A stretch of 64,000 nucleotides of DNA from Patescibacteria group bacterium (GCA_022563395.1 JADFNM010000001.1:590342-654341); one strand, 5' to 3'. Shown: positions 168 through 47,259, counted from the first letter of the stretch. A program made the numbers and translations. Notes: generated by a model not told the origin, from the sequence alone.

Positions 168-728
168 CTATTGTTCCAGTAATTTAAGGATGGCTTGGCT
201 CGCAACGGCAATGCTTGATTTGAGAAGTGCTTTCTCTTCTTGAGAAAAAGGTTTTAAGACAAAAGTCTCAACGTTGCTGGGTTTTCCTTTTGCGGGCTGA
301 ATGCCAACTCGCATTCTGGTAAAGTTCTTTGTTCTTAAAGCTTGGATAACGGAATCAACTCCCTTGTGTCCTGCAGACCCCCTATTTTCAGAAACCTTCA
401 CTTTTCCCAAAGGAATATCAATATCATCATGTATCACGATGAGGTTTTGAATGTTTCCTAAATCTCGTTTAGGAGCTCCTAAACGAGATTTAGGCAAGAG
501 GGATCGCACTGCCTTGCCAGAATTATTCATGAAGGTCTGCGGTTTTGCCAATACTACCTTAGTCTCGTTAAGGATGCCCTCAGAGACCAAAGAAGCATGC
601 TTCTTTGAAAGAGAGAATTCGGGGAAGCCATATTTTTTTTGAAACTCATCCAATACCAAAAAGCCAACGTTGTGACGGGTCTTTGCATACTTCTTTCCTG
701 GGTTTCCCAGTCCTACAATGAGATACAT
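168..728 (-). CDS. pth: Peptidyl-tRNA hydrolase
   Basis: 186 aa. Has N-terminal LIVGLGNPGKKYAKTRHNVGF, then FMNNSGKAV, HDDIDIP and GSAGHKG motifs typical of Pth. Contains an extra segment encoded by the palindrome at 457-494. Confidence 0.93.
   Translation of the reverse strand: MYLIVGLGNPGKKYAKTRHNVGFLVLDEFQKKYGFPEFSLSKKHASLVSEGILNETKVVLAKPQTFMNNSGKAVRSLLPKSRLGAPKRDLGNIQNLIVIHDDIDIPLGKVKVSENRGSAGHKGVDSVIQALRTKNFTRMRVGIQPAKGKPSNVETFVLKPFSQEEKALLKSSIAVASQAILKLLEQ
457..494. repeat. P-family palindrome inserted in-frame inside pth
   Basis: Perfect 38-bp inverted repeat CCTAAATCTCGTTTAGGAG|CTCCTAAACGAGATTTAGG. It shares the TAAACGAGATTTA arm with the intergenic palindromes at 24385, 33165 and 38444. 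It encodes PKSRLGAPKRDLG in pth. Confidence 0.8.
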
Positions 729-747
729 AAAAAATTTAAAGTATTTA

Positions 748-833
748 AATTTTCAGTTTCCCCCGTGTAGGAAATTATTCAAAACCGAGGGTTTTGAAAA
801 GAAGGGGGGTCGGGGGAAACTGTGTGACCGTAT
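748..833. repeat. ~85-bp structured repeat, copy 1 (inverted partner at 57015-57100)
   Basis: Nearly identical to the reverse complement of 57015-57100. The outer stem is CAGTTTCCCCCG/CGGGGGAAACTG and the inner hairpin is CAAAACC-gag-GGTTTTG. Lies in the pth/lepB divergent intergenic region. Confidence 0.8.
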
Positions 834-852
834 ATATAATGTATCATTATTT

Positions 853-890
853 CCTTAGCAAGACTAAGGATTCCTTAATTTCCGTTAAGG
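853..890. repeat. Degenerate P-family twin hairpins
   Basis: Sequence is CCTTAgcaagacTAAGG-att-CCTTAAtttccgTTAAGG. It resembles the CCTTAATTTCATTTAAGG arms found at 15.2, 15.9, 33.3, 38.5 and 47.2 kb. Confidence 0.5.
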
Positions 891-895
891 AGCAC

Positions 896-924
896 TTGAA
901 TTCACCATAATGATACAGTATAAT
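896..924 (+). promoter_or_regulatory. Sigma-70-type promoter of lepB, with a very short leader
   Basis: TTGAAT, 17-nt spacer, TATAAT. The -10 box ends 11 nt before the ATG at 936 and there is no Shine-Dalgarno. Confidence 0.6.
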
Positions 925-935
925 GAGGCACAGCT

Positions 936-6948: not shown

Positions 6949-7919
6949 AACTCAGAAGAGATTTCTATCATAAGAGGCATAACTTGGGTTATGCTGTTTT
7001 CGTGCAGAAGAACTTTGAGTATCATTCCTTCCATGGTTTCTTTTGAAAAGCCCTGGTCAAACACAAAGTTTCCCAGGCTGTAGACAATCCACCCCTGCTT
7101 GTAGCGTTCTATGGGTTGTATGACATGGGGATGGTGGCCAATAACAAGGTTGGCGCCAGCATCAATCGCGGTCCTGGAAAGAAGCTGCTGCACGGCGTTT
7201 GGCTTTGTTTGATACTCTTCTCCAAAATGAAAAGAAACAACAACAATATCTGCCTGCTGTTTTGTTTTCTTGATGTTTAGCTTGAGTTGTTCAAGCAAAG
7301 AGGAATCTATCCATGCAATACCAGGAGTCTTTTCTCCGGCCTGCCAGAAAGGGGAGCCAAGAGCGGTGTAGGCAAGAATTCCAACGGTTGTGCCTCCCGC
7401 GTCATAGAGAACAGGAGCCCTGGCTTCCCTCTCCGAGTTCCCTGCACCCACAGGAGTAATCCCGGCTTGCTGTAGCCGTTCTCCAGAGTCCAGCAGCGCT
7501 TCAATGCCGTAGTCCAAGCTGTGGTTGTTTGCGACAGAAACAACATCGATGCCAGCAAACACTAATCCTTCCAGAGTTCTTGGATCTGCCCTGAAAGAAT
7601 AGATACTTCCTTGTTTTTCTCCTTTATCTGAAATGATGCTTTCCAGATTTGCAAAGACAAGGTCTGCGCCTTTTAAGTAATTACCTATCTTTAAGAAGGG
7701 CCATTTCCAGTCCTGGTGTTCTTTTATGTAAAACTCTACGCCTCGGTCCAGCATAATATCCCCAACAAAAAGCAGGGTTATTTGTTCTTTGTTTGTTTCT
7801 TGCGTTAGTAGGGGAGGAACCAAAGAGGCTTGAAACTTGTCTTGCCAAAAGAGAAAGGAGCCCCCCAGGATTGAGGCGTAGAAAACAGCCATAAAGAGGA
7901 TGAGGAGAAAACGATTCAT
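6918..7919 (-). CDS. CapA/PGA-synthesis family metallophosphatase-like protein
   Basis: 333 aa with an N-terminal TM helix. Has LLFVGDIMLDRG, ANLES, VANNHSLDYG and GHHPHVIQP motifs of the CapA (PGA_cap) family. Confidence 0.82.
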   Translation of the reverse strand: MNRFLLILFMAVFYASILGGSFLFWQDKFQASLVPPLLTQETNKEQITLLFVGDIMLDRGVEFYIKEHQDWKWPFLKIGNYLKGADLVFANLESIISDKGEKQGSIYSFRADPRTLEGLVFAGIDVVSVANNHSLDYGIEALLDSGERLQQAGITPVGAGNSEREARAPVLYDAGGTTVGILAYTALGSPFWQAGEKTPGIAWIDSSLLEQLKLNIKKTKQQADIVVVSFHFGEEYQTKPNAVQQLLSRTAIDAGANLVIGHHPHVIQPIERYKQGWIVYSLGNFVFDQGFSKETMEGMILKVLLHENSITQVMPLMIEISSEFQPAISTESM

Positions 7920-13904: not shown

Positions 13905-15212
13905 ATGAAAAAGGCGTGGGTTGTTGCAGTGGACATGGGATACGGGCACCAGCGGGCCGCGTTTACCTTGCGGCGCATTGCTCTTAAAGGGAAAATAATC
14001 ACGGCAAACGATTATCCTGGCATTCCAGAGCTTGACCGCACCCTGTGGCGGGAAACCCGGAGGGTGTATGAGTTTATCTCAAAGTTCAAGAAAATCCCGG
14101 TTTTAGGAGATTTGGTATTTTCCTTAATGGACAAGGTGCAAGAGATAAAGCCCTTTTATCCAAAAGAACGCCCCTTGGAACCCCCAGGACTCCAACTAAG
14201 AACCATCTATGGATTAATCGAGAGAAAGGAGTGGGGCAGGCATTTAATAGAAAAACTGGATGAGCACCCATTACCCATGGTCTGCACCTTTCCGGTTCCA
14301 GCTTTTATGGCAGAGCACTGGAAATACCGGGGAGACATCTATCTTTTGGTGACCGACAGCGATGTTGCCCGTGCTTGGGTCCCCTTCTTTCCCAAAGAGA
14401 CCAAGATTCACTACCTTGCTCCCAGTCAGCTGGTTGCAGAGCGCCTTTTGCAGTATGGAATCTCAAAGAAAAAAATTACTCTGACCGGGTTCCCATTACC
14501 AGAGGAGTTCACAAGCTCTGAGGGATTCACCCAGACAAAAGAGGACTTAAGGAGAAGGTTGGTGCGCTTGGACCAAAAGAGAAAATACATAACCCGGTAT
14601 GCTGATGTGGTGCGTTCATACCTTGGCAAGGTGCCAACAGGCCGCAACGGAGCTCCAGTTATCACATTTGCCGTAGGGGGAGCGGGTGCTCAGCAAGCTC
14701 TGGGCCAGAGCATGATTCACCACCTAGCCCCTCTTTTGAAAAAAAAGAAGCTCAAGTTGCAGATGGTAGCCGCCACCCATAAAGATGCAGCCACAAGATT
14801 CAAGGAAGCTGCAGCAAAAGAGGGATTATCTAAAAAAGAGGTTCAGGTGGTCTTTTTAAAGAGCAAGGACAAGTACTTCAAAAGATTTACTGAGGTTTTA
14901 CGCGCAACGGATATCTTGTGGACCAAGCCTTCCGAACTCTCCTTCTATGCCGCCCTCGGCATTCCTTTGCTTCTTGCCCCTCCCATCGGGTCTCAAGAAG
15001 TGCAGAACCAAAAGTGGCTGGCGCGCTTGGGGGTTGCCATACCACAGCTCAAGGTGGAGCATGCCGATGAATGGATTCCAGACTTTTTAAATCAAGGCTT
15101 GTTTGCAGAAGCTGCCATGCAAGGATTTGTAGAGATGGAGAGAAATGGCGCCAAAAATATTGCGAGTGTCATAGAATCCAATAGTTCCTTAATGAAATTA
15201 AGGAATCCTTAA
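13905..15212 (+). CDS. Putative glycosyltransferase (MGDG-synthase/UgtP-like N-terminus)
   Basis: 435 aa. The N-terminal VAVDMGYGHQRAA resembles the G-x-GH-x-x-A motif of GT28/MGDG-synthase-like enzymes, and a GGAGAQQ segment occurs later. The last 11 codons are encoded by the 65-bp repeat. Confidence 0.45.
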   Translation: MKKAWVVAVDMGYGHQRAAFTLRRIALKGKIITANDYPGIPELDRTLWRETRRVYEFISKFKKIPVLGDLVFSLMDKVQEIKPFYPKERPLEPPGLQLRTIYGLIERKEWGRHLIEKLDEHPLPMVCTFPVPAFMAEHWKYRGDIYLLVTDSDVARAWVPFFPKETKIHYLAPSQLVAERLLQYGISKKKITLTGFPLPEEFTSSEGFTQTKEDLRRRLVRLDQKRKYITRYADVVRSYLGKVPTGRNGAPVITFAVGGAGAQQALGQSMIHHLAPLLKKKKLKLQMVAATHKDAATRFKEAAAKEGLSKKEVQVVFLKSKDKYFKRFTEVLRATDILWTKPSELSFYAALGIPLLLAPPIGSQEVQNQKWLARLGVAIPQLKVEHADEWIPDFLNQGLFAEAAMQGFVEMERNGAKNIASVIESNSSLMKLRNP

Positions 15213-15236
15213 TTTCATTTAAGAGGTATGCGTATG
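15172..15236 (+). repeat. 65-bp direct repeat, copy A (contains a P-family palindrome)
   Basis: TAGAATCCAATAGTTCCTTAATGAAATTAAGGAATCCTTAATTTCATTTAAGAGGTATGCGTATG. Identical to 15901-15965 except for one base. Confidence 0.9.
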
Positions 15237-15941: not shown

Positions 15942-15965
15942 TTTCATTTAAGAGGTATGCGTATG
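15901..15965 (+). repeat. 65-bp direct repeat, copy B
   Basis: Same sequence as 15172-15236 with one A/T difference. Supplies ...ESNSSLMKLRIP-stop to the methyltransferase and ATGCGTATG to the next gene. Confidence 0.9.
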
Positions 15966-16943: not shown

Positions 16944-16953
16944 AAGTTTATTC

Positions 16954-27430: not shown

Positions 27431-27434
27431 AATC

Positions 27435-29981: not shown

Positions 29982-29994
29982 ATAAGGTAGAAAT

Positions 29995-30213: not shown

Positions 30214-30223
30214 ATAAATCCAC

Positions 30224-30250: not shown

Positions 30251-30334
30251 ACGACTCAAGGCGATATTGTTCTTTCAAGAAGTGTGTAGTATCATTTAAT
30301 ATAGTCATAATTCCTTAATCTAATACAATACAAG

Positions 30335-31348: not shown

Positions 31349-31425
31349 TCTTATGGGGCTAGTAATCCTCAAAATACTGTAATCATAGTTTAATTTTAAA
31401 AGCGTTGACTCTCTGTTTTATTGAG

Positions 31426-31500
31426 AAAACAGGTTCTAACGTCGTCCAGTAGGGGGGAGCTCGTAAAAGTGAACCAGAGAATCGCCAAGTAGGCGGTTTT
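31426..31500 (+). repeat. Junction repeat J7 (full short form)
   Basis: AAAACAGGTTCTAACGTCGTCCAGTAGGGGGGAGCTCGTAAAAGTGAACCAGAGAATCGCCaagtaGGCGGTTTT. The TGGTAGAGT box is displaced to 31524-31532. Confidence 0.8.
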
Positions 31501-31569
31501 GAGTTTACACTGAGTACTCGAAGTGGTAGAGTGAAGTAAAGAGTTTCTTAAACCAATATCTACACGTTT

Positions 31570-32502
31570 ATGAAAGCAGTTCAAATTAATAAATATGGCG
31601 ACAACAGTGTCGTTGAAGTCAATGAGAAAGCAGCCAAACCAGAGGTGTCTGCTGGTACAGTTTTAGTGGAAGTCCACGCCGCAAGCGTTAATCCTGTGGA
31701 CTGGAAAATCCGGGAAGGATATCTTAAAGAGATGATGCAGCTTGAGTTTCCAGCCACCCTGGGGGTTGATTTTTCAGGTGTAATAGCAGAGGTTGGTGAG
31801 AGTGTTTCCGGGTTTAAGCCAGGGGATGAAGTCTATGGCATGGCCAGCGCCATGACTGGCGGTTCGTTTGCTGAATTTATAATTGTACCATTTGCATCAG
31901 TAGCCCTTAAGCCAAAAAGCGTCTCGCATAGTGAGGCTGCGGCCGTCCCACTTACGGGATTAAGTGCGTTGCAAGTCTTAAAGGACCAGATGAATATTTC
32001 CAACGGACAAAAAGTACTAATTCATGGCGGTGCTGGTGGAATCGGCACGTTGGCAATTCAGATAGCAAAACAGCTTGGCGCTGAAGTTGCAACAACCGCA
32101 AGTAAAGAGGATAGTGACATTGTGAAAGAATTGGGTGCGGATACGGTTATTGATTATAAGAATGAAAAGTTTGAGGATATGGTGAAAGACTACGATGCGG
32201 TTTTTGACACTATCGGCGGTGAAACATATCAGCGATCATTTCAAGTACTCAAAAAGGGTGGAGTTATCGTTTCCATGGTCGAGAAGCCGAATGAAGAACT
32301 GATGAAGCAATACGAAGTTGAGGCGAAGATGCAATTTACTCAACCCAACGGCGCGCAGCTTGCAGAACTTGCCACCTTGGTTGATGAAGCGAAGATGAAA
32401 ATAAAGATTGACCGCGCATTTCCCTTGGATGCAGTAAAAGAAGCACTTGATTATTTACAAAACAGCCACCATCAAGGCAAGGTGGTGATTACTGTTAAAT
32501 AA
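31570..32502 (+). CDS. Cassette 8: NADPH:quinone oxidoreductase / MDR-family zinc-type dehydrogenase
   Basis: 310 aa. Has VLVEVHAASVNPVDWK, a GxGxxG-like cofactor loop (IHGGAGGIGTLAIQ) and C-terminal GKVVI. Confidence 0.85.
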   Translation: MKAVQINKYGDNSVVEVNEKAAKPEVSAGTVLVEVHAASVNPVDWKIREGYLKEMMQLEFPATLGVDFSGVIAEVGESVSGFKPGDEVYGMASAMTGGSFAEFIIVPFASVALKPKSVSHSEAAAVPLTGLSALQVLKDQMNISNGQKVLIHGGAGGIGTLAIQIAKQLGAEVATTASKEDSDIVKELGADTVIDYKNEKFEDMVKDYDAVFDTIGGETYQRSFQVLKKGGVIVSMVEKPNEELMKQYEVEAKMQFTQPNGAQLAELATLVDEAKMKIKIDRAFPLDAVKEALDYLQNSHHQGKVVITVK

Positions 32503-32534
32503 TAAGTAAGTTTTTTTGATTGTTATTTGCCTAT

Positions 32535-32612
32535 AAAACAGGTTCTAACGTCGTCCAGCAAGGGGAGCTCGTAAAGTTAAGCCAAAGAATCGCCATGCAG
32601 GCGATTTTTTGG
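32535..32612 (+). repeat. Junction repeat J8 (full short form)
   Basis: AAAACAGGTTCTAACGTCGTCCAGCAAGGGGAGCTCGTAAAGTTAAGCCAAAGAATCGCCatgcaGGCGATTTTTTGG. The G-to-A change in the 3' arm keeps the stem paired. Confidence 0.85.
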
Positions 32613-32624
32613 TAGCTTTAAGAT

Positions 32625-33053
32625 ATGCAGACTAAGCTTTTCTTGAAAGAAACGGTTCTTCTTACAAAGTCTTTTGATGCACATCAAGATTGGGAGGTTC
32701 CAATCCCCGGATTTTTTATAATTGCCTCAAAAGATACTACAAAAAAATCAATAGCTGAGTTTACAAGTGAAGAAGTAAAAGAGCTTGGTAGTGTAATCCA
32801 TAGAGTACGGGTGGGGATGCGAGAAGTATTAGACATAAAAGATGTATATCTATTACAGAACGAAGCTTCCAAACACGGGTTTCACGTCTGGATGTTTCCT
32901 CGTTATTCATGGATGGAGAAGTTTGGATGGAGCCCTAAGTCTATAGCTTTGATTATGGAACATGCAAACAAACACATGAAAACAGACGGTAATATTAAAG
33001 AAGTAAAGGATGCGGTTATTCGGGTAAGAGAATATCTTGAAAACAGGTCCTAG
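32625..33053 (+). CDS. Cassette 9: HIT-like fold protein
   Basis: 142 aa. Has a degenerate histidine-triad-like segment HGFHVWMFPR. The stop codon lies inside the J9 left motif (GAAAACAGGTCCTAG). Confidence 0.55.
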   Translation: MQTKLFLKETVLLTKSFDAHQDWEVPIPGFFIIASKDTTKKSIAEFTSEEVKELGSVIHRVRVGMREVLDIKDVYLLQNEASKHGFHVWMFPRYSWMEKFGWSPKSIALIMEHANKHMKTDGNIKEVKDAVIRVREYLENRS

Positions 33054-33156
33054 TATCATTTCACCAACAATTCTTCTATTTCTCTCATCAAGTTTTCAGG
33101 GTTTTCAATAGCTTCTATCCACCTAAAAGTTCTAAACATGTCCCATAGGGGGGAGC
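33039..33156 (+). repeat. Junction repeat J9 (terminal: left motif plus a second degenerate unit)
   Basis: GAAAACAGGTCCTAG..., about 70 nt, then ...AAAAGTTCTAAACATGTCCCATAGGGGGGAGCT. It abuts the palindrome at 33165. Confidence 0.7.
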
Positions 33157-33164
33157 TACTTCCG

Positions 33165-33205
33165 CTTAAACGAGATTTAAGCAGCACTGCTTAAATCTCG
33201 TTTAG
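33165..33205. repeat. P-family palindrome (array / LTD-module boundary)
   Basis: CTTAAACGAGATTTAAGCAGCACTGCTTAAATCTCGTTTAG followed by TTATCCACAGGTTTTCCTCAGCAGCTCTTTT. It is a direct repeat of 24385-24457. Confidence 0.85.
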
Positions 33206-33282
33206 TTATCCACAGGTTTTCCTCAGCAGCTCTTTTCAACCCAACTCAAAACCCTGTACAATAGAAAAGGTGTGTCGAATAC

Positions 33283-33321
33283 CTCCTTAATGAAATTAAG
33301 GATGCTTTAATTTCATTTAGG
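33283..33321. repeat. P-family palindrome upstream of the 33346 gene
   Basis: CTCCTTAATGAAATTAAGGATGCTTTAATTTCATTTAGG. This and the following ~35 nt are repeated at 38498-38552. Confidence 0.8.
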
Positions 33322-33345
33322 CACTATTAACCTTTTGGATTTTGT

Positions 33346-34008
33346 ATGCAAAAACAAGTGCTTATTATAGGGGCAATCCTTCTAGTGATTGTTATTGGAG
33401 GGATTTTTTTGTTGGTGAATCAAACAGAAACTAAATCTCGTTTAGGAGAACCTGAATACAGTACCACCCCAACCCAGTGGAGCCAAGCCGAAGATTACAA
33501 AATAGAAGAAACTCCCACCGGCACCGTTGTGGCGAACGAAAAAGCTGGCTTCAGCTTCAAAGTCCCTGAGGGGTGGAGTGTGGAAGGAGAGGAGGGGATT
33601 ACGGTAGGAGAATATGCACTTGTAATCCTTTCTTCTGAGGCAGAATTTGAAGAAGATCAGTATGGCAATAAAACTACATTTCTCAGAGGATGTGCTATTA
33701 GCTTAGAAACCTTATATCAGAAAGACGAGGTTGTTTCTGTCAAGAATTTAATTGATACTTATAATGAGAAACCCGAGGCAAAACCAGAAGACGAAAGCAT
33801 TATTATTGTTGATAATCAGTCAGCTCTTAGGGCGATTTTCGTACCAGAAGACCTAGAGATTTTAGAAAAAATCGGAGAGTTTATTCAAATACGAGTTCCA
33901 ATTTCTGAAGAAACTCTAATAGGGTTTGGGATAAGGATGAAGCCAGAATACAGATCTGATTGCATTGCTGAATTCGACAGCTTTATCTCAAGTTTCTCCA
34001 TTAACTGA
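33346..34008 (+). CDS. Secreted/anchored hypothetical protein
   Basis: 220 aa with an N-terminal TM helix (VLIIGAILLVIVIGGIFLLV). Contains a half P-family element in-frame (CTAAATCTCGTTTAGGAG encoding KSRLG) at 33431-33448. Confidence 0.65.
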   Translation: MQKQVLIIGAILLVIVIGGIFLLVNQTETKSRLGEPEYSTTPTQWSQAEDYKIEETPTGTVVANEKAGFSFKVPEGWSVEGEEGITVGEYALVILSSEAEFEEDQYGNKTTFLRGCAISLETLYQKDEVVSVKNLIDTYNEKPEAKPEDESIIIVDNQSALRAIFVPEDLEILEKIGEFIQIRVPISEETLIGFGIRMKPEYRSDCIAEFDSFISSFSIN

Positions 34009-34028
34009 GTATAATTTTGTATCTACTA

Positions 34029-37000
34029 ATGGAGAAAGGATCTCTTCTATTCATTGGCATCTCCTTAGTTCTTGGGTTATCTCTCTTTTTCTTAGCTTTT
34101 GCGCAGTATGAAGAGACGTTTGCTTTGTCAGAAAAAGATATTAAGGACGCACTCATACTATCTAAAAAAGATACTACTCTTATCCTGGGCGTTGCGCAAA
34201 GCGAAACCTCTAAACTAGTACCTAATGGTAGAATTTTTGCTTACTCATCTCGAGGACAAGCCGCACTCACACTTTTTAGAAGCTCTTCTAGAAAAGCGGT
34301 ACTGGATTTTCTCCCCGGATTTGCTGCTACCGAGACCGTAAAAGTTGTTATTAAAGCAGCCTCCTCGTTCCAGAAGCTTTCAACAGTAACAGCAAAAGAA
34401 GTTTTAGAAGAAATAGAAAAACAGACGGTTCAAAAAGCGGTAGAAACTGGAGTCAATTGGCTTTTTCAAAATAAGATAAAGATCGGGAGTGGGAGTATAA
34501 CAAAAACGTACCGTAACTATGAAGGCGTTCAGACAGAAGCAATTTTCCAGTACGTAGTGGCTTATGAGAGTATTGATTCAGAGAGCGCTAAGGCGATGGT
34601 GGAGTTTTATTCTCCAGATTTCGTTGATGCCCCAGAGGCAAAGAGTTCCATTTCGGGTTTTATCGGATTTGTCGGTGATTCGCCTCACAGTGGCACCGTA
34701 GATCCTTTTGTGATCCATCTAGAGACTCAAGTTACAAAATCCGCCTTAGGCTGGGTAGTCGATTCGTCTGCTCGAACAAAAATCACGGTCGAGTTTCCCG
34801 ATGAGGTGCCGAGGTTGGAGCTGACAAAGGAATTGCCCTACCCAATAGAAGAACAAAAGATTAATCTCCTCAATAAGCTTACTGCGATAAAGAAAGTTTT
34901 TGATACACTTGGAAATGCTGGAATTGAGATATTTAACATTCTTAGCAAGGGGGTGGGAATGGTACAAGGAACTGCCGAGGATTTTTTTTCCTTTATATCC
35001 AAGGTAATCTCTCTTGGTGGCGCCGGTTTAGTAGACCCTGCTGTTGAATCTCAACTTAACGAGATTAAGGAAGAGTTAGATGTAAAAGAGAATCAAGCGC
35101 AACTTAGTTTAACTAAGGATGAGGGCGATGAGCCTTTCCTTCAACCCCAATCTGAAGTTAACCAAGTAGAATTAAGCGAGACTAAGGAGGATTTGAAACT
35201 ACAGGAAAACCAGGAGGGTGAGGAGAAACTTAGTCTCGTGAAGGAGATATGCGTCATTAATCCTCTGAAATCTCCTGTTTTTGGCGGTGTAATTTTAAGC
35301 GAGATCGCTTGGATGGGTACTGTTGCCTCGGCAAATGATGAGTGGATTAGATTGCAAAATGTTTCCCATCTGCAGAATATCTCAAATGTGTCGGTAAACC
35401 TGCAAGGGTGGCAGCTCATTGATAAAAATGGGGATATTGAGGTGATTTTTGAACAGGACCACCTTATTTCTTCACGGGGAGCATTTCTTTTGGAGCGTAC
35501 CGATGATACCTCGTTGCCGAGTGTTTCAGCAGACTTCATTTACACAGGGGTTCTCAATAATACAAATGAGGCATTGTATCTTTTTGACAGCAACTGTGTG
35601 TTGCGAGACAAGGTGGAAGCTAGTCCTAACTGGCCAGGGGGCGATAATGATATCAAGCAACCTATGGTGCGTCTTTCAGATTTAAGCTGGGAGCAGGCAA
35701 AACTTGATTTAGTCAAGGATGAAGAGGTGCAAGAAAGGGTGTTTGCAGGATGCCTTGATGGACAAATAAATATTAACGCGGTAAATAACGACTTGCTGCA
35801 AGAGATTGTTCAGATTGGAGACGTCACAGCAGAACAAATTATTGAGGCGCGTGTTTTGCAGGCCTTTTATACGATAGACGAGCTTGAGAGAATTTCAGGA
35901 ATTGCAGAGAGAACCGTTGCAAAAATTAAAGAGCAAGGGTGGGCCTGCGCAGCAGACGCGAAGGATGTCAGCTTTAGGTCCTTTCAAAAGCCAGTTTCAT
36001 ACGGAGGAGGGGGAGGTGGCTCTTCAGGCTCTCAATCTTCGCAGGAGAATCAAAGCGAAGAAGCGCAACTTTGTTCTCAAGCAAATATAGGTAGTCCCAG
36101 CAATACTCCCGTTATCATCAACGAGATAGCTTGGATGGGCACTACAAATTCTGCAAATGACGAGTGGATAGAATTAAAGAATGTTAGTGAAGAAGAGGTT
36201 ACACTTGAAGGATGGCAATTACTTGATGCCAGCGGTCAGATTGAAGTTATTTTTACAAACCAGGATATCATTGCTGCATCTGGCTTTTATATTCTGGAGC
36301 GCACAGACGATACTACTCTTTTGGGTATCACAGCAGATACTATCTATGTGGGAAGTTTGGGTAATAGCGACGAATCTTTAAGACTTTTTGATAATACCTG
36401 TACTCTTATCGATGAGATTATAGCTGATCCGGATTGGCCAGGGGGTGATAACGATACGAAATATACTCTTGAAAGAGCAGAAGATTTATCCTGGCAGACC
36501 CATTATGGAGAGGATAATAGCGGGACCCCGGGTGCAGAGAATAGTACGGCTCCAGAGGATCCACCGACGCCCGTTGTCTTGCCCCAAACCGTGGTTATAA
36601 ATGAGGTAGCTTGGATGGGAACAATAGCTTCTGCAAACGAGGAGTGGTTAGAACTTTACAATACCACGGCTGCAGATGTTGATCTCATTGGGTGGAAACT
36701 GCAAGCAGAAGATAGTGCCCCAACCATTGAGTTGATAGGTACTATTGCAGCGAATAGTTACTTTTTGTTAGAGCGGACTGATGATACTACAATTTCTGAC
36801 ATCGCTGCAGACCAGATATATACAGGTGCTCTAGAAAATGAGGGAGAAATTTTGAAACTCTATGATGCAGAAAATAATCTTATTGATATTGTTGATGCGT
36901 CCGCTGGCTGGATTGCAGGAGATAATGCAGTAAAACAGAGTATGGAGCGCATAGATGCGGCAAAAGGGGGGTCTGACCCCCCTAACTGGGCAAATAACAA

Positions 37001-38438
37001 TCTTATTACACATAACGGAGAAGATTCAGATGGGGGATATGTGAATAGCACTCCACGAGCGCAAAACAGTGTTTCTTATTCTTCTACAACAATAATTAAC
37101 ACTGCGTTTCTCCGCTTTAACGAATTTGAAGAAGTCACCCTTGCTTTTCTGGGAAGTCCCTACGAAATGCTAGGGAATATTGAAGTGCCCCCTGGCAAGA
37201 CATTGATTGTGGAACCAGGGGTCACTATTCGCTTGAAAGCTCTAAAGTCCCACGTGATTATTCATGGTACGCTGCAGGCTGTGGGCAGTGAAGATAACGT
37301 TATTACCTTTATTGACGGCGCTGACGGAAATTTTGGGAATTGGTGCGGCTTTTCCTTTTCTTCTACCAGCACTAACTCTCAGTTGGAATACGTGAAGGTA
37401 GAACAATCAGCGAGCGTTACACCCACCTGCGGCACATTAGGAGGAAAGACCTATGCTTTGTTTGTGGATGGGACTGACATCATCATGAAGAATTCTGTCA
37501 TTAATAAAGGTAGTTCTGATCACAAACTCTCTCTTAGAAACTCAAATTCCACTATTGATTCTCTGACGATTACAGGTGATACAACCAAGACAGCGTTCGC
37601 TGCAGGAATATACATAGAAGGAGGAAGTCCGAGCATAACCAACTCTACGATTAAAGATAGCGCCATTGGTATATTTGTGGAGAATAATGTGTCGGACCCT
37701 GCAAGCTTGCCTACTATTACTAATAATACCCTAACGGATAATACCTATGCTATTATTCTGGCGGGAGCCGATGCTGTGGTTTCTGGCAATACGGCAACCG
37801 GCAATACGTATAACGGTATTTGGGTAAAAGATGCCATATCAACTGCAAACGCCGTCTGGGAAGCAGACACCATTCCCTACATTGTAAACCAGCTGGAAAT
37901 AGAAGCAGGAAAAACCCTAACGATACAATCTGGTGTTGTTGTAAAGTTTCTTGCCGCACCCCTAAGTAATACGGAATTTATCGTACACGGCACCCTATTA
38001 GTTCAAGGCACCGCAGCAAACCAGGTGGTATTTACAAGAATTGGGGATGACACAGTAGGAGGAGATACAAACGGAGAAGGGCTTTCTTCTACCGTATACT
38101 GGAAAAGAATGCGCTTTACTTCAACAAGCACTGGTTCTGTTTTGAATCATACGGTTTTGAAATATGGGGGGCATGCGGCTGTGAAATATATAGGGGAGAC
38201 AGAAGGAGATGGTGCTTTGCATGTACAAGGGGAGGTTGATTTGCAGAATGTGACTGTGCAAGATAGCCCTAGGGTTGGCTTGTATTCTTCAGGTATAATA
38301 ACGGGGTCTGGTATAACGCTTGTAGATAATGCATATGGCCTTAACCTTGTAATGGCAGAGTGCCCGGTGCTTACCAATGTAACCATTTCTGGTTCTGGAG
38401 AAGATTTCTACCCTGGTTCTTTGGAGTGCCAATTTTGA
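34029..38438 (+). CDS. Giant secreted protein: three lamin-tail (LTD) domains, ComEA-like helix-hairpin-helix region and C-terminal right-handed beta-helix
   Basis: The ATG at 34029 gives MEKGSLLFIGISLVLGLSLFFLAF. LTD signature [IL]xEIAWMGT..SANDEW[IL]EL.N......L.GW.L occurs at about 35289, 36111 and 36591. An HhH segment is at about 35770-35940 (NINAVNNDLLQEIVQIGDVTAEQIIEAR...ISGIAERTVAKIKEQG). PbH1-like repeats span about 37090-38438. Confidence 0.8.
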   Translation: MEKGSLLFIGISLVLGLSLFFLAFAQYEETFALSEKDIKDALILSKKDTTLILGVAQSETSKLVPNGRIFAYSSRGQAALTLFRSSSRKAVLDFLPGFAATETVKVVIKAASSFQKLSTVTAKEVLEEIEKQTVQKAVETGVNWLFQNKIKIGSGSITKTYRNYEGVQTEAIFQYVVAYESIDSESAKAMVEFYSPDFVDAPEAKSSISGFIGFVGDSPHSGTVDPFVIHLETQVTKSALGWVVDSSARTKITVEFPDEVPRLELTKELPYPIEEQKINLLNKLTAIKKVFDTLGNAGIEIFNILSKGVGMVQGTAEDFFSFISKVISLGGAGLVDPAVESQLNEIKEELDVKENQAQLSLTKDEGDEPFLQPQSEVNQVELSETKEDLKLQENQEGEEKLSLVKEICVINPLKSPVFGGVILSEIAWMGTVASANDEWIRLQNVSHLQNISNVSVNLQGWQLIDKNGDIEVIFEQDHLISSRGAFLLERTDDTSLPSVSADFIYTGVLNNTNEALYLFDSNCVLRDKVEASPNWPGGDNDIKQPMVRLSDLSWEQAKLDLVKDEEVQERVFAGCLDGQININAVNNDLLQEIVQIGDVTAEQIIEARVLQAFYTIDELERISGIAERTVAKIKEQGWACAADAKDVSFRSFQKPVSYGGGGGGSSGSQSSQENQSEEAQLCSQANIGSPSNTPVIINEIAWMGTTNSANDEWIELKNVSEEEVTLEGWQLLDASGQIEVIFTNQDIIAASGFYILERTDDTTLLGITADTIYVGSLGNSDESLRLFDNTCTLIDEIIADPDWPGGDNDTKYTLERAEDLSWQTHYGEDNSGTPGAENSTAPEDPPTPVVLPQTVVINEVAWMGTIASANEEWLELYNTTAADVDLIGWKLQAEDSAPTIELIGTIAANSYFLLERTDDTTISDIAADQIYTGALENEGEILKLYDAENNLIDIVDASAGWIAGDNAVKQSMERIDAAKGGSDPPNWANNNLITHNGEDSDGGYVNSTPRAQNSVSYSSTTIINTAFLRFNEFEEVTLAFLGSPYEMLGNIEVPPGKTLIVEPGVTIRLKALKSHVIIHGTLQAVGSEDNVITFIDGADGNFGNWCGFSFSSTSTNSQLEYVKVEQSASVTPTCGTLGGKTYALFVDGTDIIMKNSVINKGSSDHKLSLRNSNSTIDSLTITGDTTKTAFAAGIYIEGGSPSITNSTIKDSAIGIFVENNVSDPASLPTITNNTLTDNTYAIILAGADAVVSGNTATGNTYNGIWVKDAISTANAVWEADTIPYIVNQLEIEAGKTLTIQSGVVVKFLAAPLSNTEFIVHGTLLVQGTAANQVVFTRIGDDTVGGDTNGEGLSSTVYWKRMRFTSTSTGSVLNHTVLKYGGHAAVKYIGETEGDGALHVQGEVDLQNVTVQDSPRVGLYSSGIITGSGITLVDNAYGLNLVMAECPVLTNVTISGSGEDFYPGSLECQF

Positions 38439-38443
38439 TTCTG

Positions 38444-38484
38444 CTTAAACGAGATTTAAGCAACATTGCTTAAATCTCGTTTAG
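38444..38484. repeat. P-family palindrome (right boundary of LTD module)
   Basis: CTTAAACGAGATTTAAGCAACATTGCTTAAATCTCGTTTAG, starting 6 nt after the stop of the giant gene. Confidence 0.85.
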
Positions 38485-38497
38485 TTTCTCATAACTA

Positions 38498-38525
38498 GAT
38501 TAAGGAATCCTTAATTTCATTTAGG
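38498..38525. repeat. P-family element plus duplicated upstream region of the 33346 gene
   Basis: GATTAAGGAATCCTTAATTTCATTTAGG, then CACCATTAACC...TTTTGCATGCAAAAA. This parallels 33296-33357, including the ATG-CAA-AAA start. Confidence 0.75.
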
Positions 38526-38564
38526 CACCATTAACCTCTTTTATTTTGCATGCAAAAAAAGAAA

Positions 38565-38591
38565 GGCGTCCAGTTCCCCCTACTGGACGCC
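38565..38591 (-). terminator. Intrinsic terminator of the minus-strand HTH gene; carries a 15-nt core of the cassette junction repeat in inverted orientation
   Basis: Stem GGCGTCCAGT/ACTGGACGCC with a 7-nt loop and a T-rich tract on the minus strand. The minus-strand sequence CGTCCAGTAGGGGGA (38575-38589) is identical to the J1/J7 core. Confidence 0.6.
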
Positions 38592-38617
38592 TCTTGGGTT
38601 CTCGAGACCCTTTTCAC

Positions 38618-38854
38618 TTAGCTGACCCTCGTTATCTCCAGAGTTTCGCCTGGAGCGAGGGCAACTTTACGGACGTTGATGCCGAGCTTGAGGAACCAGT
38701 AGTTCAACGTGGCTTTGCTGACGTCAAGCTGGCTGGCTATCTCCTGAAGGTCCGATTCCTCCTGGTCGTTGATCATTGCCGGGAGAAGCTGCTCCAAAGG
38801 TTGTTTGAAGTGTCTCTCCACAGACAACATGAGGTTGGTCTTTTTTTGGGCCAT
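38618..38854 (-). CDS. Small helix-turn-helix DNA-binding protein (GC-rich, foreign-looking)
   Basis: 78 aa starting at MAQKKTNL..., preceded by AGGAG 9 nt upstream. The HTH-like segment is LQEIASQLDVSKATLNYWFLKLGI. Confidence 0.55.
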   Translation of the reverse strand: MAQKKTNLMLSVERHFKQPLEQLLPAMINDQEESDLQEIASQLDVSKATLNYWFLKLGINVRKVALAPGETLEITRVS

Positions 38855-38965
38855 GGGTGGTTTCTCCTTATACAGGATCTTCCTCCCCGTGCCCTCCCCA
38901 TTTACTGCCACGGGAGCGGTTTTGTTCGACGAGTCTCGAGTGTTATGTTGCTGAAAAGATCTGGT

Positions 38966-39166
38966 TTAGGGCACCTTGGCGGGTACCCTAGAAATGTAGG
39001 AAAGAGGAACATTTCTCAATACCACTGTGTCGAGCTGCACAGTGGCACGGGGAGTAGGTCCTCCTGTGAGGGCGATGATGAGGGCCCCGGTCAGGGTAGT
39101 GCCCCCACTCCTTGTGTCGACAGGGGTTTTGTTTTTCATGCATGCCCTTGCTTCTAGAGGTCCCAT
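38966..39166 (-). CDS. Small hypothetical protein (GC-rich), upstream partner of the HTH gene
   Basis: 66 aa with AGGAG 6 nt upstream of the ATG. It is in the same reading frame as the downstream HTH ORF, separated from its open upstream extension by a single TAA. Confidence 0.4.
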   Translation of the reverse strand: MGPLEARACMKNKTPVDTRSGGTTLTGALIIALTGGPTPRATVQLDTVVLRNVPLSYISRVPAKVP

Positions 39167-39265
39167 GATCTGCTCCTTTTCATGCTAGTCCAATGAGTGT
39201 TTCTGCGGGCTAGAGACTATAGAGTGTTTATAGCATAGTTGGTTGTCCTTGTCAACTTCCCCTTT

Positions 39266-39294
39266 TTGACCTACCGCTAGGTCTTTGGTATATT
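39266..39294 (+). promoter_or_regulatory. Promoter of the 39341 regulator gene
   Basis: TTGACC, 17-nt spacer, TGgTATATT. A leader hairpin CCCCCACCACTC-aaatat-GAGTGTGGGGG follows before the ATG. Confidence 0.5.
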
Positions 39295-39340
39295 GGGGTG
39301 AGCCCCCCCACCACTCAAATATGAGTGTGGGGGTAAAAAA

Positions 39341-39985
39341 ATGACTCCTGATTTTTTTGTTCGCCTTACAATGGCGGTCCATAAAGTAGTTGATATCCTG
39401 CCCCGGCAAGATCCTTTGAGGGTACAGATGCAAGATTCCGCAAACAAGCTTTTGGCAAGTTTGGTTTTACTTGCACAAGAAAATCCGGTTACCAAAGAGC
39501 AAAAGCGCCAGGTTGCCCCAAGGGCCATCAGGGAGCTTGGTATGCTTATTGCCTATTTAAACTATGCAAAGCGCACGACCCAGATAAACCCAGAGAACTT
39601 CTTGGTGCTGGAACGGGAATATAATAGGGTAGGAGAATTTTTGCGAAAGATTCACGAAACCCAGGGCGATTTTTACGGCTCCGCGGGAGCTTCGCCTAAA
39701 TCGCCCGCCGAAGCCAAGCAGTTGGCTTCGGCCCCACAGCCTCTACCCGATGCTGCGCTTGAGCGAACTCCCTCATCCATACCTCCTAAGTCTCGCTTAA
39801 GCACAAGGCAGACCCGCATTTTGGAGCTTATGCGCAACAAGCCCAAAACCCAGGTTTGGGAGCTGCAAAAGGTTCTTCCCGAGGTAACAAAAAGGACCCT
39901 GCGCCGGGACTTAGACGACTTGCTCCATCGTCATCTCATTATCAGGCAAGGGGAGTGGAATGAGGTTTTTTACCAGATTCGCTAA
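39341..39985 (+). CDS. Two-domain regulator: four-helix-bundle N-terminal domain plus DeoR-type winged HTH
   Basis: 214 aa. The C-terminal LSTRQTRILELMRNKPKTQVWELQKVLPEVTKRTLRRDLDDLL is a DeoR-like HTH pattern. Confidence 0.65.
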   Translation: MTPDFFVRLTMAVHKVVDILPRQDPLRVQMQDSANKLLASLVLLAQENPVTKEQKRQVAPRAIRELGMLIAYLNYAKRTTQINPENFLVLEREYNRVGEFLRKIHETQGDFYGSAGASPKSPAEAKQLASAPQPLPDAALERTPSSIPPKSRLSTRQTRILELMRNKPKTQVWELQKVLPEVTKRTLRRDLDDLLHRHLIIRQGEWNEVFYQIR

Positions 39986-40072: not shown

Positions 40073-40576
40073 ATGGAGGAAATCAATCAATATTTCAGCC
40101 AGGTATACGACCAATACGTCAAGCGCATCTACCGGTTCATCTACCTTAAGGTCAGTTTAACGGAGACGGCAGAAGACCTGTCGTCTGAGGTGTTTTTGCG
40201 TCTGTACCGGCATATTCAAAAGAACAATCCCATCATTGAAAACCCCCAGGCCTTTCTCTACCAAATAGCAAGAAATGTGGTGGCAGACCACTACCGGAGC
40301 AAAAAAGTCTCTTTAGTGTCTATTGAGAGGACCACCATTGAGATTGAGGATATTAGCGAGAAAACAAGGGAACAGGGCGAGATAAGCTTGGAAATGGACC
40401 GGATAAGGCAGGCCATAGCCCAGCTGCAAGACGACTACCAAGACCTTATTATCTGGCGGTACATAGACGAGCTCACCGTACCCGAAATAGCCCAAATTAC
40501 CGGCAAGACCGAAAAGAATGTGAGAGTAGGAGTCCACAGGGCTATTAAAGCCCTTAAGGGCAAAGTAGCTGCTTAA
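40073..40576 (+). CDS. ECF-type RNA polymerase sigma-70 family factor
   Basis: 167 aa. Region 2 is YVKRIYRFIYLKV...AEDLSSEVFLRLY. Region 4 is YIDELTVPEIAQITGKTEKNVRVGVHRAIKALK. Confidence 0.88.
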   Translation: MEEINQYFSQVYDQYVKRIYRFIYLKVSLTETAEDLSSEVFLRLYRHIQKNNPIIENPQAFLYQIARNVVADHYRSKKVSLVSIERTTIEIEDISEKTREQGEISLEMDRIRQAIAQLQDDYQDLIIWRYIDELTVPEIAQITGKTEKNVRVGVHRAIKALKGKVAA

Positions 40577-40590
40577 ATCTCGTTTAAGCA
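40570..40590. repeat. P-family half element/hairpin across the sigma-factor stop codon
   Basis: TGCTTAAATCTCGTTTAAGCA (stem TGCTTAAA/TTTAAGCA). Confidence 0.6.
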
Positions 40591-45373: not shown

Positions 45374-45459
45374 TTCTCTCAGTAACTGCATCCCTATCCT
45401 TGTGCGCCCTTCGTAGCCCTTGTGGTGAAGTAGGGTGGGGGATTAACAGGAAACCCACT

Positions 45460-45487
45460 AGCCCCGCCTCTCTGGCGGGGCTTTTGG
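45460..45487 (+). terminator. Intrinsic terminator after the giant surface-protein gene
   Basis: AGCCCCGCC-tctct-GGCGGGGCT followed by TTTGGTTT. Confidence 0.7.
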
Positions 45488-45502
45488 TTTGGCGCTGAGT
45501 AT

Positions 45503-45510
45503 TGTATAAT
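45503..45510 (+). promoter_or_regulatory. Extended -10 box 7 nt upstream of the ATG (leaderless-type start)
   Basis: TGTATAAT at 45503-45510, ATG at 45518, no Shine-Dalgarno. Confidence 0.5.
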
Positions 45511-45517
45511 TTGATTT

Positions 45518-47221
45518 ATGAAGCTGCGTACAAAGATATTATTTTCTATTGTTTTTACAGTTGTTTTTTTGCCATCCGCTGTTCAGGCCGAGTTTTTGGG
45601 CCAGACTGTTGTTTTTTTTGTTGACTCTTCTTATGACGCAACAAAAAGAGAGGAATTGCCTGCGGCTTTGGTAAAGATTTCTCCCAAACTTCTTTTATAT
45701 ATTGATGATGCCTGGTGGTCAGCTCAAAACCCTTTTGTGCAAGATGAGGTAAGGCGCTCTTTTAATGCTTTGGCAACAGAGTTTGAAGGAAGAATATATC
45801 CTATTCTTACCTCAACCTTTGGAAGCGAATGGAAGCCGGGGATTGACAACGATTCTCGTATTACGGTTCTTTTTCACCCCATGACAGATGAGGCCGGGGG
45901 ATACACAAATTACGGAGACGAATATCCCAAGGTACAGAACCCCACATCAAACGAGCGTGAAATGGTTTATTTAAACACTGCTTTTATCACAAGCCCAATG
46001 CTCAAGAGCCTTCTTTCGCATGAATTGGTACATTTGATTACCTTTAATCAGAAAGAAAACCTGCACAACGTTTCAGAAGAGATGTGGCTCAATGAGGCAA
46101 GGGCAGAATATGCTTCAACGCTTTTGGGATATGACGATGTGTTTTTAGGTTCAAACCTTGAACGGAGGATACAAACGTTTATCCAAGACCCTACCGATTC
46201 CTTGATAGAATGGAATAACGAAAAATCTGATTATGCGGTGGTAAATCTTTTTATACAGTATCTTGTTGACCAGTACGGGTTAAACATTCTTAAAGATTCT
46301 CTGCTATCTAGCAAGGTTGGGGCAGCCTCTCTGTTTGAAGCACTGGAGAACAATGGATTTAGCACCACCTTTGCCGAAGTGTTTACCGATTGGACCATTG
46401 CAGTGCTTGTGAATGACTGCGCCCTAGGAGAAAGGTATTGCTATAAAAATCAAAACCTTAAAGATTTTAAGGTGGTTCCGCAAACCAACTTTTTGCCTGT
46501 TTCAGGAGAGAGTACGTTTTCTTTGGTGAACACCACAAAGGATTGGGCAGGGAACTGGTACAAACTTGTGGGAGGCAACAATGTACTTAAGGTAGAATTT
46601 CAGGGTAATCCTTTGGCAATCTTTAAACTGCCCTACCTTGTAGAAAATCGCGAAGGGCAGATTACTCTTAAGTTTGTTACTCTTAACGAAAACCAGAAGG
46701 GGCAGTTTGAGCTCCAAAATTATAAGGAAAACCGTTCCCTCATTCTCATTCCTTCTCCCCAGACAAATACCCAAGATACCGAGAATTTTCTTCCTTATCA
46801 GTTTGTTTTAACCTTTTCTACAGCCCAAAGAACTCAAGAGCAAGAGCAGGTTTTAATTGACCAGCTCTTAGCTCAAATTGATTTTCTTGCAAAAGAGATA
46901 GCCAAGATTCAGGCACAAATTTATGCTCTTTTGGCAGGCCAGGGCACGGCAAACTGCTCTTCATTTACTAGGGATTTGTCTTTTGGAATGAAAGATAATT
47001 TTGAGGTTAGCTGCTTGCAGGAGTTTCTAAAATCAGAGGGACCTGACATCTATCCTGAAGGAATTGTATCTGGCAACTTTCTTTCTTTGACGCAGGCAGC
47101 GGTAGTGCGCTTTCAAGAAAAATATGCGGATGATGTTCTGCTGCCTTTGGATTTGGAGAAGGGGACAGGATATGTTGGAGCTTCCACAAGAGCAAAAATC
47201 AACTCCATTTTATCTCCTTAA
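45518..47221 (+). CDS. Secreted zinc metallopeptidase-like protein with C-terminal coiled coil and PG-binding-like domain
   Basis: 567 aa with a signal peptide and the HELVHL (HExxH) motif. The C-terminal LIDQLLAQIDFLAKEIAKIQAQIYALL is followed by VVRFQEKYADDVL...GTGYVGASTRAKINSIL. Confidence 0.75.
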   Translation: MKLRTKILFSIVFTVVFLPSAVQAEFLGQTVVFFVDSSYDATKREELPAALVKISPKLLLYIDDAWWSAQNPFVQDEVRRSFNALATEFEGRIYPILTSTFGSEWKPGIDNDSRITVLFHPMTDEAGGYTNYGDEYPKVQNPTSNEREMVYLNTAFITSPMLKSLLSHELVHLITFNQKENLHNVSEEMWLNEARAEYASTLLGYDDVFLGSNLERRIQTFIQDPTDSLIEWNNEKSDYAVVNLFIQYLVDQYGLNILKDSLLSSKVGAASLFEALENNGFSTTFAEVFTDWTIAVLVNDCALGERYCYKNQNLKDFKVVPQTNFLPVSGESTFSLVNTTKDWAGNWYKLVGGNNVLKVEFQGNPLAIFKLPYLVENREGQITLKFVTLNENQKGQFELQNYKENRSLILIPSPQTNTQDTENFLPYQFVLTFSTAQRTQEQEQVLIDQLLAQIDFLAKEIAKIQAQIYALLAGQGTANCSSFTRDLSFGMKDNFEVSCLQEFLKSEGPDIYPEGIVSGNFLSLTQAAVVRFQEKYADDVLLPLDLEKGTGYVGASTRAKINSILSP

Positions 47222-47259
47222 TTTCGTTTAAGCATTCTTGCCTAAATGAAATTAAGGAG
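47214..47259. repeat. P-family palindrome across the stop codon of the 45518 gene (terminator-like)
   Basis: CTCCTTAATTTCGTTTAAGC-attctt-GCCTAAATGAAATTAAGGAG. The arm sequence is intermediate between the two P-family variants. Confidence 0.8.

Follow-up and report, generated by a model that had tools for sequence, protein, structure and literature searches.

Palindromic hairpin repeats at gene ends and cassette borders in a Patescibacteria genome, probably of the REP/REPIN type with a RAYT-like transposase partner in related genomes

A 64,000-nucleotide stretch of a Patescibacteria group bacterium (GCA_022563395.1, JADFNM010000001.1:590342-654341; hereafter the window), whose genes lie almost wholly on the + strand, carries a family of short palindromes at gene ends, in leaders, within reading frames and at the borders of accessory genes. 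We consider these palindromes to be, in all likelihood, hairpin repeats of the repetitive extragenic palindrome (REP) type or of its hairpin-forming doublet (REPIN), in a bacterium of the Candidate Phyla Radiation (CPR, the Patescibacteria), with a partner in related genomes that resembles a REP-associated tyrosine transposase (RAYT). An initial annotation, made from the sequence of the window, had read the family as similar to REPs or to miniature inverted-repeat transposable elements. This reading is borne out and sharpened here: CPR loci retrieved by pattern carry a RAYT-like Y1 gene flanked by the units, and such a gene is present at the syntenic hotspot of a close relative.

The building block of the family is a 17-bp unit with two-fold symmetry, CCTWAR-N5-YTWAGG, which occurs mostly as an inverted pair and in which palindromic flanks enclose a short asymmetric centre. 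Two forms of the unit, V1 (C(C/T)TAAA-TCTCG-TTTA(G/A)G) and V2 (CCTTAAT-GAA-ATTAAGG), are present in the window, together with a 9-mer, TTATCCACA, that matches the DnaA-box consensus. Numbered from the first letter of the window, the copies and the gene that two of them enclose are the following.

454-497: V1 inverted pair (TCTCG...CGAGA, GAGCTC centre), in frame in pth (168-728, minus strand), where it encodes PKSRLGAPKRDLG.
853-890: units CCTTAGCAAGACTAAGG and CCTTAATTTCCGTTAAGG, next to each other in the region from which pth and lepB diverge, just upstream of the inferred extended -10 of pth.
15172-15236, + strand: junction module J1, composed of TAGAATCCAATAGTT, a V2 pair (15186-15226) and GAGGTATGCGTATG.
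15228-15941, + strand: Methyltransf_24 gene (the cargo), between the DUF6938 and GH42-like genes, with a 65-nt module on each side.
15901-15965, + strand: junction module J2, 98% identical to J1, with its V2 pair at 15915-15955.
24385-24455, + strand: V1 pair (24385-24424), TTATCCACA (24425-24433) and then ~22 nt; left copy of the 70-nt direct repeat that bounds a low-GC array.
33165-33236, + strand: V1 pair (33165-33205) and TTATCCACA (33206-33214); the 70-nt direct repeat again, on the right side of the array (97% identity).
33283-33321, + strand: V2 pair that follows an inferred extended -10 (TGTACAAT) and precedes the start of a 220-aa gene.
33431-33448, + strand: single V1 unit in frame in the 220-aa gene, encoding TKSRLGE.
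38444-38484, + strand: V1 inverted pair with a T-rich tail, 6 nt past the stop of a 1473-aa LTD/HHH gene.
38498-38525, + strand: V2 half unit and one unit, within a 67-nt repeat common to 33288-33354; leader or promoter-proximal.
40570-40590, + strand: single V1 unit that gives the stop codon of an ECF-type sigma factor gene.
46456-46472: candidate extra unit, CCTTAAAGATTTTAAGG, in frame in a 567-aa gene, from a strict unit scan (~0.05 expected per 64 kb by our own estimate).
47211-47262: longest pair, with 24-nt arms, a V2-like/V1-like hybrid that gives the stop codon of the 567-aa gene (predicted fold -29.2 kcal/mol, z = -10).

The family is genuine, in that the sequences first reported for it are present at 12 of the 12 sites listed and an inverted-repeat search of the window independently recovered the pairs at 454-497, 15181-15229, 15910-15958, 24385-24424, 33167-33204, 33278-33328, 38446-38483 and 47211-47262. 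Most of the ten inverted pairs of the initial annotation stand as such, except that 853-890 consists of two different self-palindromic units and 38498-38525 of a half unit and a unit. The 18-mer consensus proposed at the time, YCTTAAWTYTCRTTTAAG, has no exact match and is imprecise because the sub-variants differ by 1 nt in length; with up to 2 mismatches it does find 8 sites, against 0.19 expected. The 13-mer TAAATCTCGTTTA is present in 10 exact copies, against 0.10 expected even with 1 mismatch, and the unit patterns occur 10 times for V1 (1.0 expected) and 3-4 times for V2 (0-0.1 expected). V1 and V2 are identical at 13/17 positions; most of their differences fall at mirror positions (2/16 and 4/14), and in-between sequences at 853, at 47211 and in relatives bridge the two, so that they belong to a single superfamily, with two or more subfamilies. 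V1 pairs occur in both arrangements, CGAGA...TCTCG at 24385, 33165 and 38444 and TCTCG...CGAGA at 457. An inverted pair of units makes a hairpin of 15-24 bp, with a predicted fold, as RNA or as single-stranded DNA, of -15 to -29 kcal/mol (z -5 to -10). A scan of the whole window at Rfam gathering scores and a scan for tRNA and tmRNA both returned zero matches.

That the family marks gene ends holds for several copies, and four stop codons (15210, 15939, 40574 and 47219) are supplied by units; it does not hold for 457-494 and 33431-33448, which are intragenic and in frame. The copies at 24385 and 38444 begin 6-20 nt past gene stops, and others occupy 15-nt gaps between genes that seem to be translationally coupled. 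J1 holds the final codons and stop of the DUF6938 gene as well as the ribosome-binding site and start of the next. The unit beside the promoter-like sequence at 853-890 is conserved in two relatives (L184 and L182; the loci collected in our searches are cited by such L numbers). Two stretches of the window, 1.5-15 kb and 47.3-64 kb, yielded no copies. Some 2.6-2.9 kb to the right of the window, at 14884-14925 of L195, an MGMT-like (DNA_binding_1) gene takes its stop codon (14886) from another V1 pair (TCTCG...CGAGA), so the family extends beyond the window and its accessory cluster.

A RAYT-like gene lies at the corresponding place in a relative. In L191, whose peptidase is 74% identical to that of the window, a 223-aa gene directly follows the peptidase gene, at the position held in the window by the V1 pair 24385, and a unit and a box-like TTACCCAC lie between the two genes. 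The 223-aa protein scores 31.3 bits against Pfam Y1_Tnp (gathering score 23), its best NCBIfam model is NF047646, 'REP-associated tyrosine transposase' (E = 1.6e-17; 63.8 bits, under the cutoff of 80), and its HUH motif (PTHIHL) and tyrosine motif (YIHLNP) align to those of E. coli TnpA-REP (PDB 4ER8). A tblastn search with this protein against all collected loci found homologs in L012, L039, L051, L081 and L156, all of which had been retrieved purely through DNA matches to the palindrome; 5 of 5 score above the Pfam Y1_Tnp threshold and have the RAYT model as top NCBIfam match. Among the 23 family-type loci (151 kb) there are four such homologs, against 0.19 expected on the assumption of one such gene per 800-kb genome (P ~5e-5). 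Moreover, the RAYT-like genes of L081 and L039 have units of their own variant on both sides, including a composite with the 9-mer, that of L051 has a pair 11 nt upstream, and those of L051 and L191 have units on one side. Their neighbours are housekeeping genes (ligA/ftsW in L051, a ComFC-like gene in L039 and L012), and no tnpB lies nearby. A RAYT-like gene flanked by units among housekeeping genes is the defining arrangement of REP/REPIN-RAYT systems. In viral contigs no composite was found, and two distant Y1 homologs are present there without flanking hairpins. As a separate observation, the RAYT-like gene lies directly upstream of the ComFC-like gene (double zinc ribbon and phosphoribosyltransferase) in three genomes (L039 872-1633, L012 686-1540 and downstream of L081 7911), a conserved neighbourhood that ties it to a competence gene.

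The same architecture recurs across CPR lineages. A scan of the GTDB, with one genome per species, for two TAAA-N5-TTTA units no more than 14 nt apart gave 57 loci, 7 of which have the architecture of the family (Yanofskybacteria, Parcubacteria, Paceibacterota, Saccharibacteria and one unclassified metagenome-assembled genome, MAG), the others being mostly unrelated palindromes and tandem repeats. In 4 of the 7 the spacer is TTATCCACA(N), and in many CPR genomes the 9-mer forms the loop or the 3' tail of the hairpin; in the window, its sole two perfect copies sit right after V1 pairs, at 24425 and 33206. A metagenome scan with the pattern TAAA-N5-TTTAGTTATCCACA, noisy on account of AT-rich oriC-like DnaA boxes and one abundant gut contig, yielded at least 15 distinct composites of the form unit-TTATCCACAN-unit', in which N5 varies from composite to composite (TTCGA, TCCGA, CCGAG, TTCCA, CCAGG, CTAAG and others) and is matched by its reverse complement in the second unit. 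The arms of these 15 covary, with 38 double-sided changes against 15.3 +/- 3.1 after shuffling (none of 500 shuffles comes up to 38) and pairing in 92% of cells, and the signal is lost once the partners slide by one column or more. All 15 listed composites are intergenic, at -15 to ~+140 nt from the nearest open reading frame (ORF), one larger gap, in L048, being a missed ORF call. When L039 and the other CPR loci from GTDB were compared with the window by tblastx, there were no matches except for L059 (core genes of the YbeY/FtsA region, away from palindromes), so the repeat is not brought along by shared neighbouring genes. It was also observed that a GC-rich hairpin, CCTGCCTGCCGGCAGGCAGG, recurs beside the AT-rich units in unrelated CPR loci (L039 ~1690, L078, L187 ~2310, L185 ~1780); units and CCTGCCTGCCGGCAGGCAGG hairpins together are mosaics of several small palindromes, akin to bacterial interspersed mosaic elements (BIMEs).

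Copies vary in their presence among relatives. L001-L004, retrieved through an identical protein, are of the same strain as the window (99.97% identical) and uninformative in this respect; orthologous loci elsewhere show presence and absence at the pth copy, at the 3' end of the sigma factor gene, at the methyltransferase gene and in the 15-kb array/LTD region. The pth element is an insertion of 8-13 aa relative to solved Pth structures, and across 60-120 pth homologs the same loop holds inserts derived from unit pairs of differing variants (PKLSLGAPKLSL, PKLGLGTPKPSL, PKPGLG...) or none; at the DNA level, L184 has CCTAAATCTCGTTTAGGAGCTC..., L182 and L183 have CCTAAGCTTAGCTTAGGAGCTCCTAAGCTAAGCTTAG and L188 has nothing. 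L182 carries a second copy of its own variant in another gene, and in L186 the V1 pair centred on GAGCTC lies in an HTH_DeoR-like gene, not in pth. At the end of the sigma factor gene, the unit is missing from the orthologous stop in L185. Intragenic copies in relatives lie in PGA_cap, in the LTD gene and in the HTH_DeoR-like gene. The linker of the last of these (window 39341-39985; L186 20065-20102; L185 12092-12700) was seen to hold a full in-frame V1 pair in L186 (PKRDLGAPKSPLG) and remnants only in L185 (GAPKSRL) and in the window (PPKSRLS), which suggests an old insertion that may have decayed at different rates in different genomes. For the leader of the 220-aa gene, comparison of the window with L186 gives 94% identity in the flanks and 74% in the V2 pair, which has stayed palindromic. 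A general rule that units diverge faster than their flanks was considered and rejected, because the pth element of L184 is 95% identical with flanks at 79-89%, and in L182 the two are about equal.

At two places the palindromes coincide with differences in accessory genes between relatives. The initial annotation had placed copies on either side of the methyltransferase gene, the array and the LTD module; that placement is correct, and comparison with relatives backs it as well as the idea of a recombination hotspot, since the methyltransferase and its modules vary in presence and the array and LTD region are missing or different in relatives. The methyltransferase gene, between its nearly identical direct repeats, is missing at the DUF6938|GH42 junction in L185, L186, L187, L191 and L192, and its homologs are sparse (next-best identities 77%, 62%, then 51%). 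Across relatives, none, one, two or three genes are inserted at this junction. L186, with a single module (2365-2408), and L192 (1554) have it empty; L189 (945-2507) has two cassettes, DUF2268 and methyltransferase, with three modules; L191 (776-2337) has three other small genes, a 104-aa gene and a DUF433/PIN-like toxin-antitoxin pair; and L185 (1561-1894) has 333 nt of non-coding DNA. Where 65-nt modules are present (window, L186, L187 and L189), there is one per cassette boundary and the flanks of the module are conserved. The junction (window 15212-15957) is thus a cassette hotspot.

The second place is the low-GC array (24.4-33.2 kb), bounded by the 70-nt direct repeats of V1 pair and 9-mer, and the DNA that follows it. 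The segment 24.4-39.3 kb is absent as a whole from L185, and L186 is without the array but with the LTD module. After the peptidase gene, L185-L187 have no element of V1 pair and TTATCCACA, and the region of L186 orthologous to 33165-33236 has one unit of another variant with the same 9-mer. The interval between the trypsin-like peptidase and HTH_DeoR-like genes was observed to be hypervariable, spanning 15 kb in the window (24365-39340), 1.4 kb in L185 (10720-12092) and 9 kb in L186 (10720-19752, with an IS1595-family transposase), with the RAYT-like gene at the contig end in L191 (10720-11470). A second repeat family was noticed in every array spacer (24492-32631; ~24517, 25232, 26611, 27817, 29934, 31427 and 32536) and at 15863-15895. 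It consists of a 3' motif, AACAGGTTCTAACGTCGTCCAGTAGGGGGAGCTCG, followed by CAAAGAATCGyCAnnnnGGCGGTTTTTTGGTAGAAT, a small GC hairpin and T run fused to an extended -10. As AACAGGTTCTAACGTCGTCCAGTAGGGGGAGCTCG also ends the inserted methyltransferase gene, in the window and in L189, the methyltransferase insertion is linked to the array cassettes.

In the mechanism that we propose, a RAYT-like enzyme acting in trans would recognise the hairpin on single-stranded DNA, for example at the replication fork, and would cut and join it, thereby copying or homogenising units inside one genome. Copying of this kind, genome by genome, would account for the ten identical 13-mers of the window and for the differing N5 'dialects' elsewhere. 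New copies would survive where they are harmless, that is, within 5' leaders, as in-frame additions to protein linkers, and in tight intergenic gaps, where many would provide a stop codon. The dispersed modules of 40-70 bp would then become substrates of recombination, leading to insertion, deletion or swap of cassettes, and accessory segments would for this reason be bounded by direct repeats of the module. TTATCCACA would contribute to the function of the element, with DnaA or the transposase as the protein that recognises it.

Of the known kinds of repeat, the family comes nearest to the REP/BIME/REPIN-RAYT systems of E. coli, Pseudomonas and Stenotrophomonas. As in these, the palindromes are short, dispersed and often arranged as inverted doublets that form a long hairpin, they are homogeneous within a genome and different between genomes, and, in related CPR genomes, a single Y1/HUH gene is flanked by repeats amid housekeeping genes; mosaics with small motifs are likewise found, BIMEs having an IHF site between their REPs and the CPR units the DnaA-box 9-mer. 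The differences are that each CPR unit is symmetric with flanks conserved across CPR classes, that the elements carry TTATCCACA as loop or tail, an asymmetric conserved part 3' of the unit, and that the host is a reduced genome in a new phylum. Some RAYT subclasses bear a DnaA-C-like tail, and DnaA boxes are missing from the repeats that flank them (PMC6006769); a search of the C-terminus of the CPR RAYT-like proteins revealed no DnaA-C-like domain. Other repeats share single traits. The Rickettsia palindromic elements are in-frame palindromic inserts in a reduced genome and add peptide segments in tolerant loops, but they measure 100-150 bp and have no known transposase partner, whereas the CPR elements measure 17-40 bp, are mostly intergenic and are RAYT-associated. 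Mycobacterial interspersed repetitive units also lie in intercistronic operon gaps and overlap the upstream stop and downstream start, but they are direct tandem repeats of 46-101 bp and not palindromes. Correia elements of Neisseria resemble the family in their inverted pairs at gene ends and species-specific variants and differ in being miniature transposable elements of 100-150 bp with TA target-site duplications. Tandem interspaced guide RNA arrays were considered and rejected, as the copies are dispersed and not tandem; such arrays have tandem units, box C/D motifs and a Tas protein (PMC12045711).

Several points weigh against a REP/REPIN-RAYT assignment. The GTAG foot of proteobacterial REPs is absent, the foot here being CCTAAA, CTTAAG or CCTTAG. 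Unlike classical REPs, at least 2 of the 12 copies in the window lie inside genes, in frame (pth and the 220-aa gene). Over the 64-kb window and the adjoining 9.5 kb on the right there is no RAYT-like gene, and the RAYT-like proteins are divergent (18-64 bits against the NCBIfam equivalog cutoff of 80). The covariation of the arms could stem from template switching or gene conversion at palindromes and not from selection for the hairpin. Finally, cleavage, transposition and excision of the elements are putative events.

It is possible, if unlikely, that the units are more than selfish REPs and that the hairpin modules would serve the RAYT-like HUH enzyme as single-stranded sites of recombination, at which cassettes are captured and shuffled in the manner of an integron but with this enzyme in place of a tyrosine integrase, the DnaA box tying cutting or copying to DnaA or to replication. 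If true, such an HUH-based, integron-like system would be a dedicated route for accessory genes in genome-reduced, host-dependent bacteria, at fixed hotspots of which DUF6938|GH42 and peptidase|HTH_DeoR are examples.

The stability of the predicted RNA hairpins, which is very high, and the position of many copies at gene ends or in 5' leaders invite an explanation at the RNA level, in which the hairpins would act mainly as stem-loops, between cistrons or at 3' ends, that stop transcription, hold off 3' exonucleases or, as RNase III sites, tune the expression of adjacent genes. REPs of E. coli influence mRNA 3' ends, and copy 38445 has a T-rich tail, both of which count for this view. Yet that tail is the only terminator-like one in 24-41 kb, the stems are AT-rich, where an intrinsic terminator has a GC-rich stem directly ahead of a T run, and copies lie in frame in the essential gene pth and in other ORFs and between seemingly coupled genes 15 nt apart, so that the earlier suggestion that the element doubles as a terminator is not supported generally. 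Moreover, the asymmetric 9-mer points either way with respect to the flanking genes (about 6 sense and 9 antisense), which argues against a strand-specific RNA role, and the presence/absence pattern and the association with RAYT-like genes are left unexplained. We regard a mainly RNA-level function as improbable.

We are similarly doubtful that the pair modules are dedicated sites of a site-specific recombination system for cassettes, attC-like or lox-like, with two inverted arms around a crossover of 3-10 bp and the repeats as by-products of cassette traffic. The junction with 0-3 genes, in which each boundary has one 65-nt module wherever modules occur, the 70-nt direct repeat on either side of the array and the hybrid pairs whose arms belong to different variants (L049, L103, L134, J2 of L189, and 47211-47262) are what such a system would leave. 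The likeness to integron attC sites extends to hairpin sites in which structure is conserved above sequence, at cassette boundaries. However, neither an integrase nor any other recombinase lies in the window or beside the hotspots, no tyrosine recombinase such as IntI being found in the window; the R'' (RYYYAAC) and R' (GTTRRRY) boxes and the extrahelical bases of attC are absent; and the arms are just 6+5+6 bp, the elements being much shorter than attC sites (57-141 nt). Most copies, among them those in pth, in gene linkers and at the end of the sigma factor gene, do not border a cassette.

Operator-like, double-stranded sites for a dimeric regulator, with DnaA on the adjacent TTATCCACA, would make the units a regulon or a DnaA-titration set. 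The flanks of the unit are indeed two-fold symmetric and one helical turn apart, one unit, conserved in three genomes, takes the -35 place of the inferred pth promoter, and both perfect DnaA-box 9-mers of the 64 kb fall in elements; but the N5 centre is constant within a genome, which is needless for a spacer, some copies fall within ORFs or on stop codons, operators have no need of the covariation between paired arms, and the RAYT association is again unexplained, all of which makes this account very unlikely. Least credible is a role as DNA-uptake signals for the ComEC/type IV pilus machinery, an alternative raised at the outset. The window does hold comEC and a ComEA-like LTD/HHH protein, and Neisseria uptake sequences likewise occur in inverted pairs with species 'dialects', but they are one dominant 9-12-mer at ~1 copy per kb across the core genome, whereas here several variants coexist in one genome, copies are sparse and patchy (~0.16 per kb for the V1 13-mer, with the copy-free stretches given above), cluster at accessory DNA and not core genes, and arise as insertions that add 8-13 codons.

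Some further features of these sequences were noted in passing. A promoter-like motif, TTTTTTG(R)TA(n)AAT, with an extended -10 right after a T run, lies ahead of many genes of the clade (L185 ~1805, L187 ~2370, L189 ~995 and 1725, L191 ~2240; window 24555, 25300, 26676 and 27882) and may be a common promoter form of these organisms. A strong terminator-like hairpin on the minus strand (38594-38562) lies inside a 203-aa + strand ORF (38546-39157), because of which the coding strand is uncertain there and the gene may lie on the minus strand instead. The window also holds, at 49413-53367 and 61685-63472, three spermidine-synthase paralogs, an arginase-family gene, an AdoMet decarboxylase and a TrwB/TraG-like type IV coupling protein. 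L183 carries a diversity-generating retroelement (reverse transcriptase and bAvd, 15866-17246), and L192 a HigB-like toxin inserted between its HtrA and ClpB genes (6978-7247).

REP/REPIN-RAYT systems are known chiefly from Proteobacteria, Cyanobacteria and Bacteroidetes (PMC6006769), and we found no description of REP/REPIN-RAYT-like elements in Patescibacteria in the literature searched. The Patescibacteria are a very large group with tiny genomes, thought to shed non-essential DNA. If the REP/REPIN-RAYT reading is true, CPR genomes would maintain a hairpin replicator, whose unit flanks and DnaA-box 9-mer recur across lineages that include Parcubacteria-type MAGs and Saccharibacteria. A DnaA-box 9-mer within the REP would complement the DnaA-C-like tails of those RAYTs whose repeats lack DnaA boxes (PMC6006769). 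In practice, the motif could serve as a marker of RAYT genes and of variable regions in CPR metagenome bins. The elements would remodel proteins, through in-frame inserts in pth and in linkers, and donate stop codons; and they would mark, and probably mediate, the insertion points of accessory cassettes, so that hotspots would be predictable from sequence.

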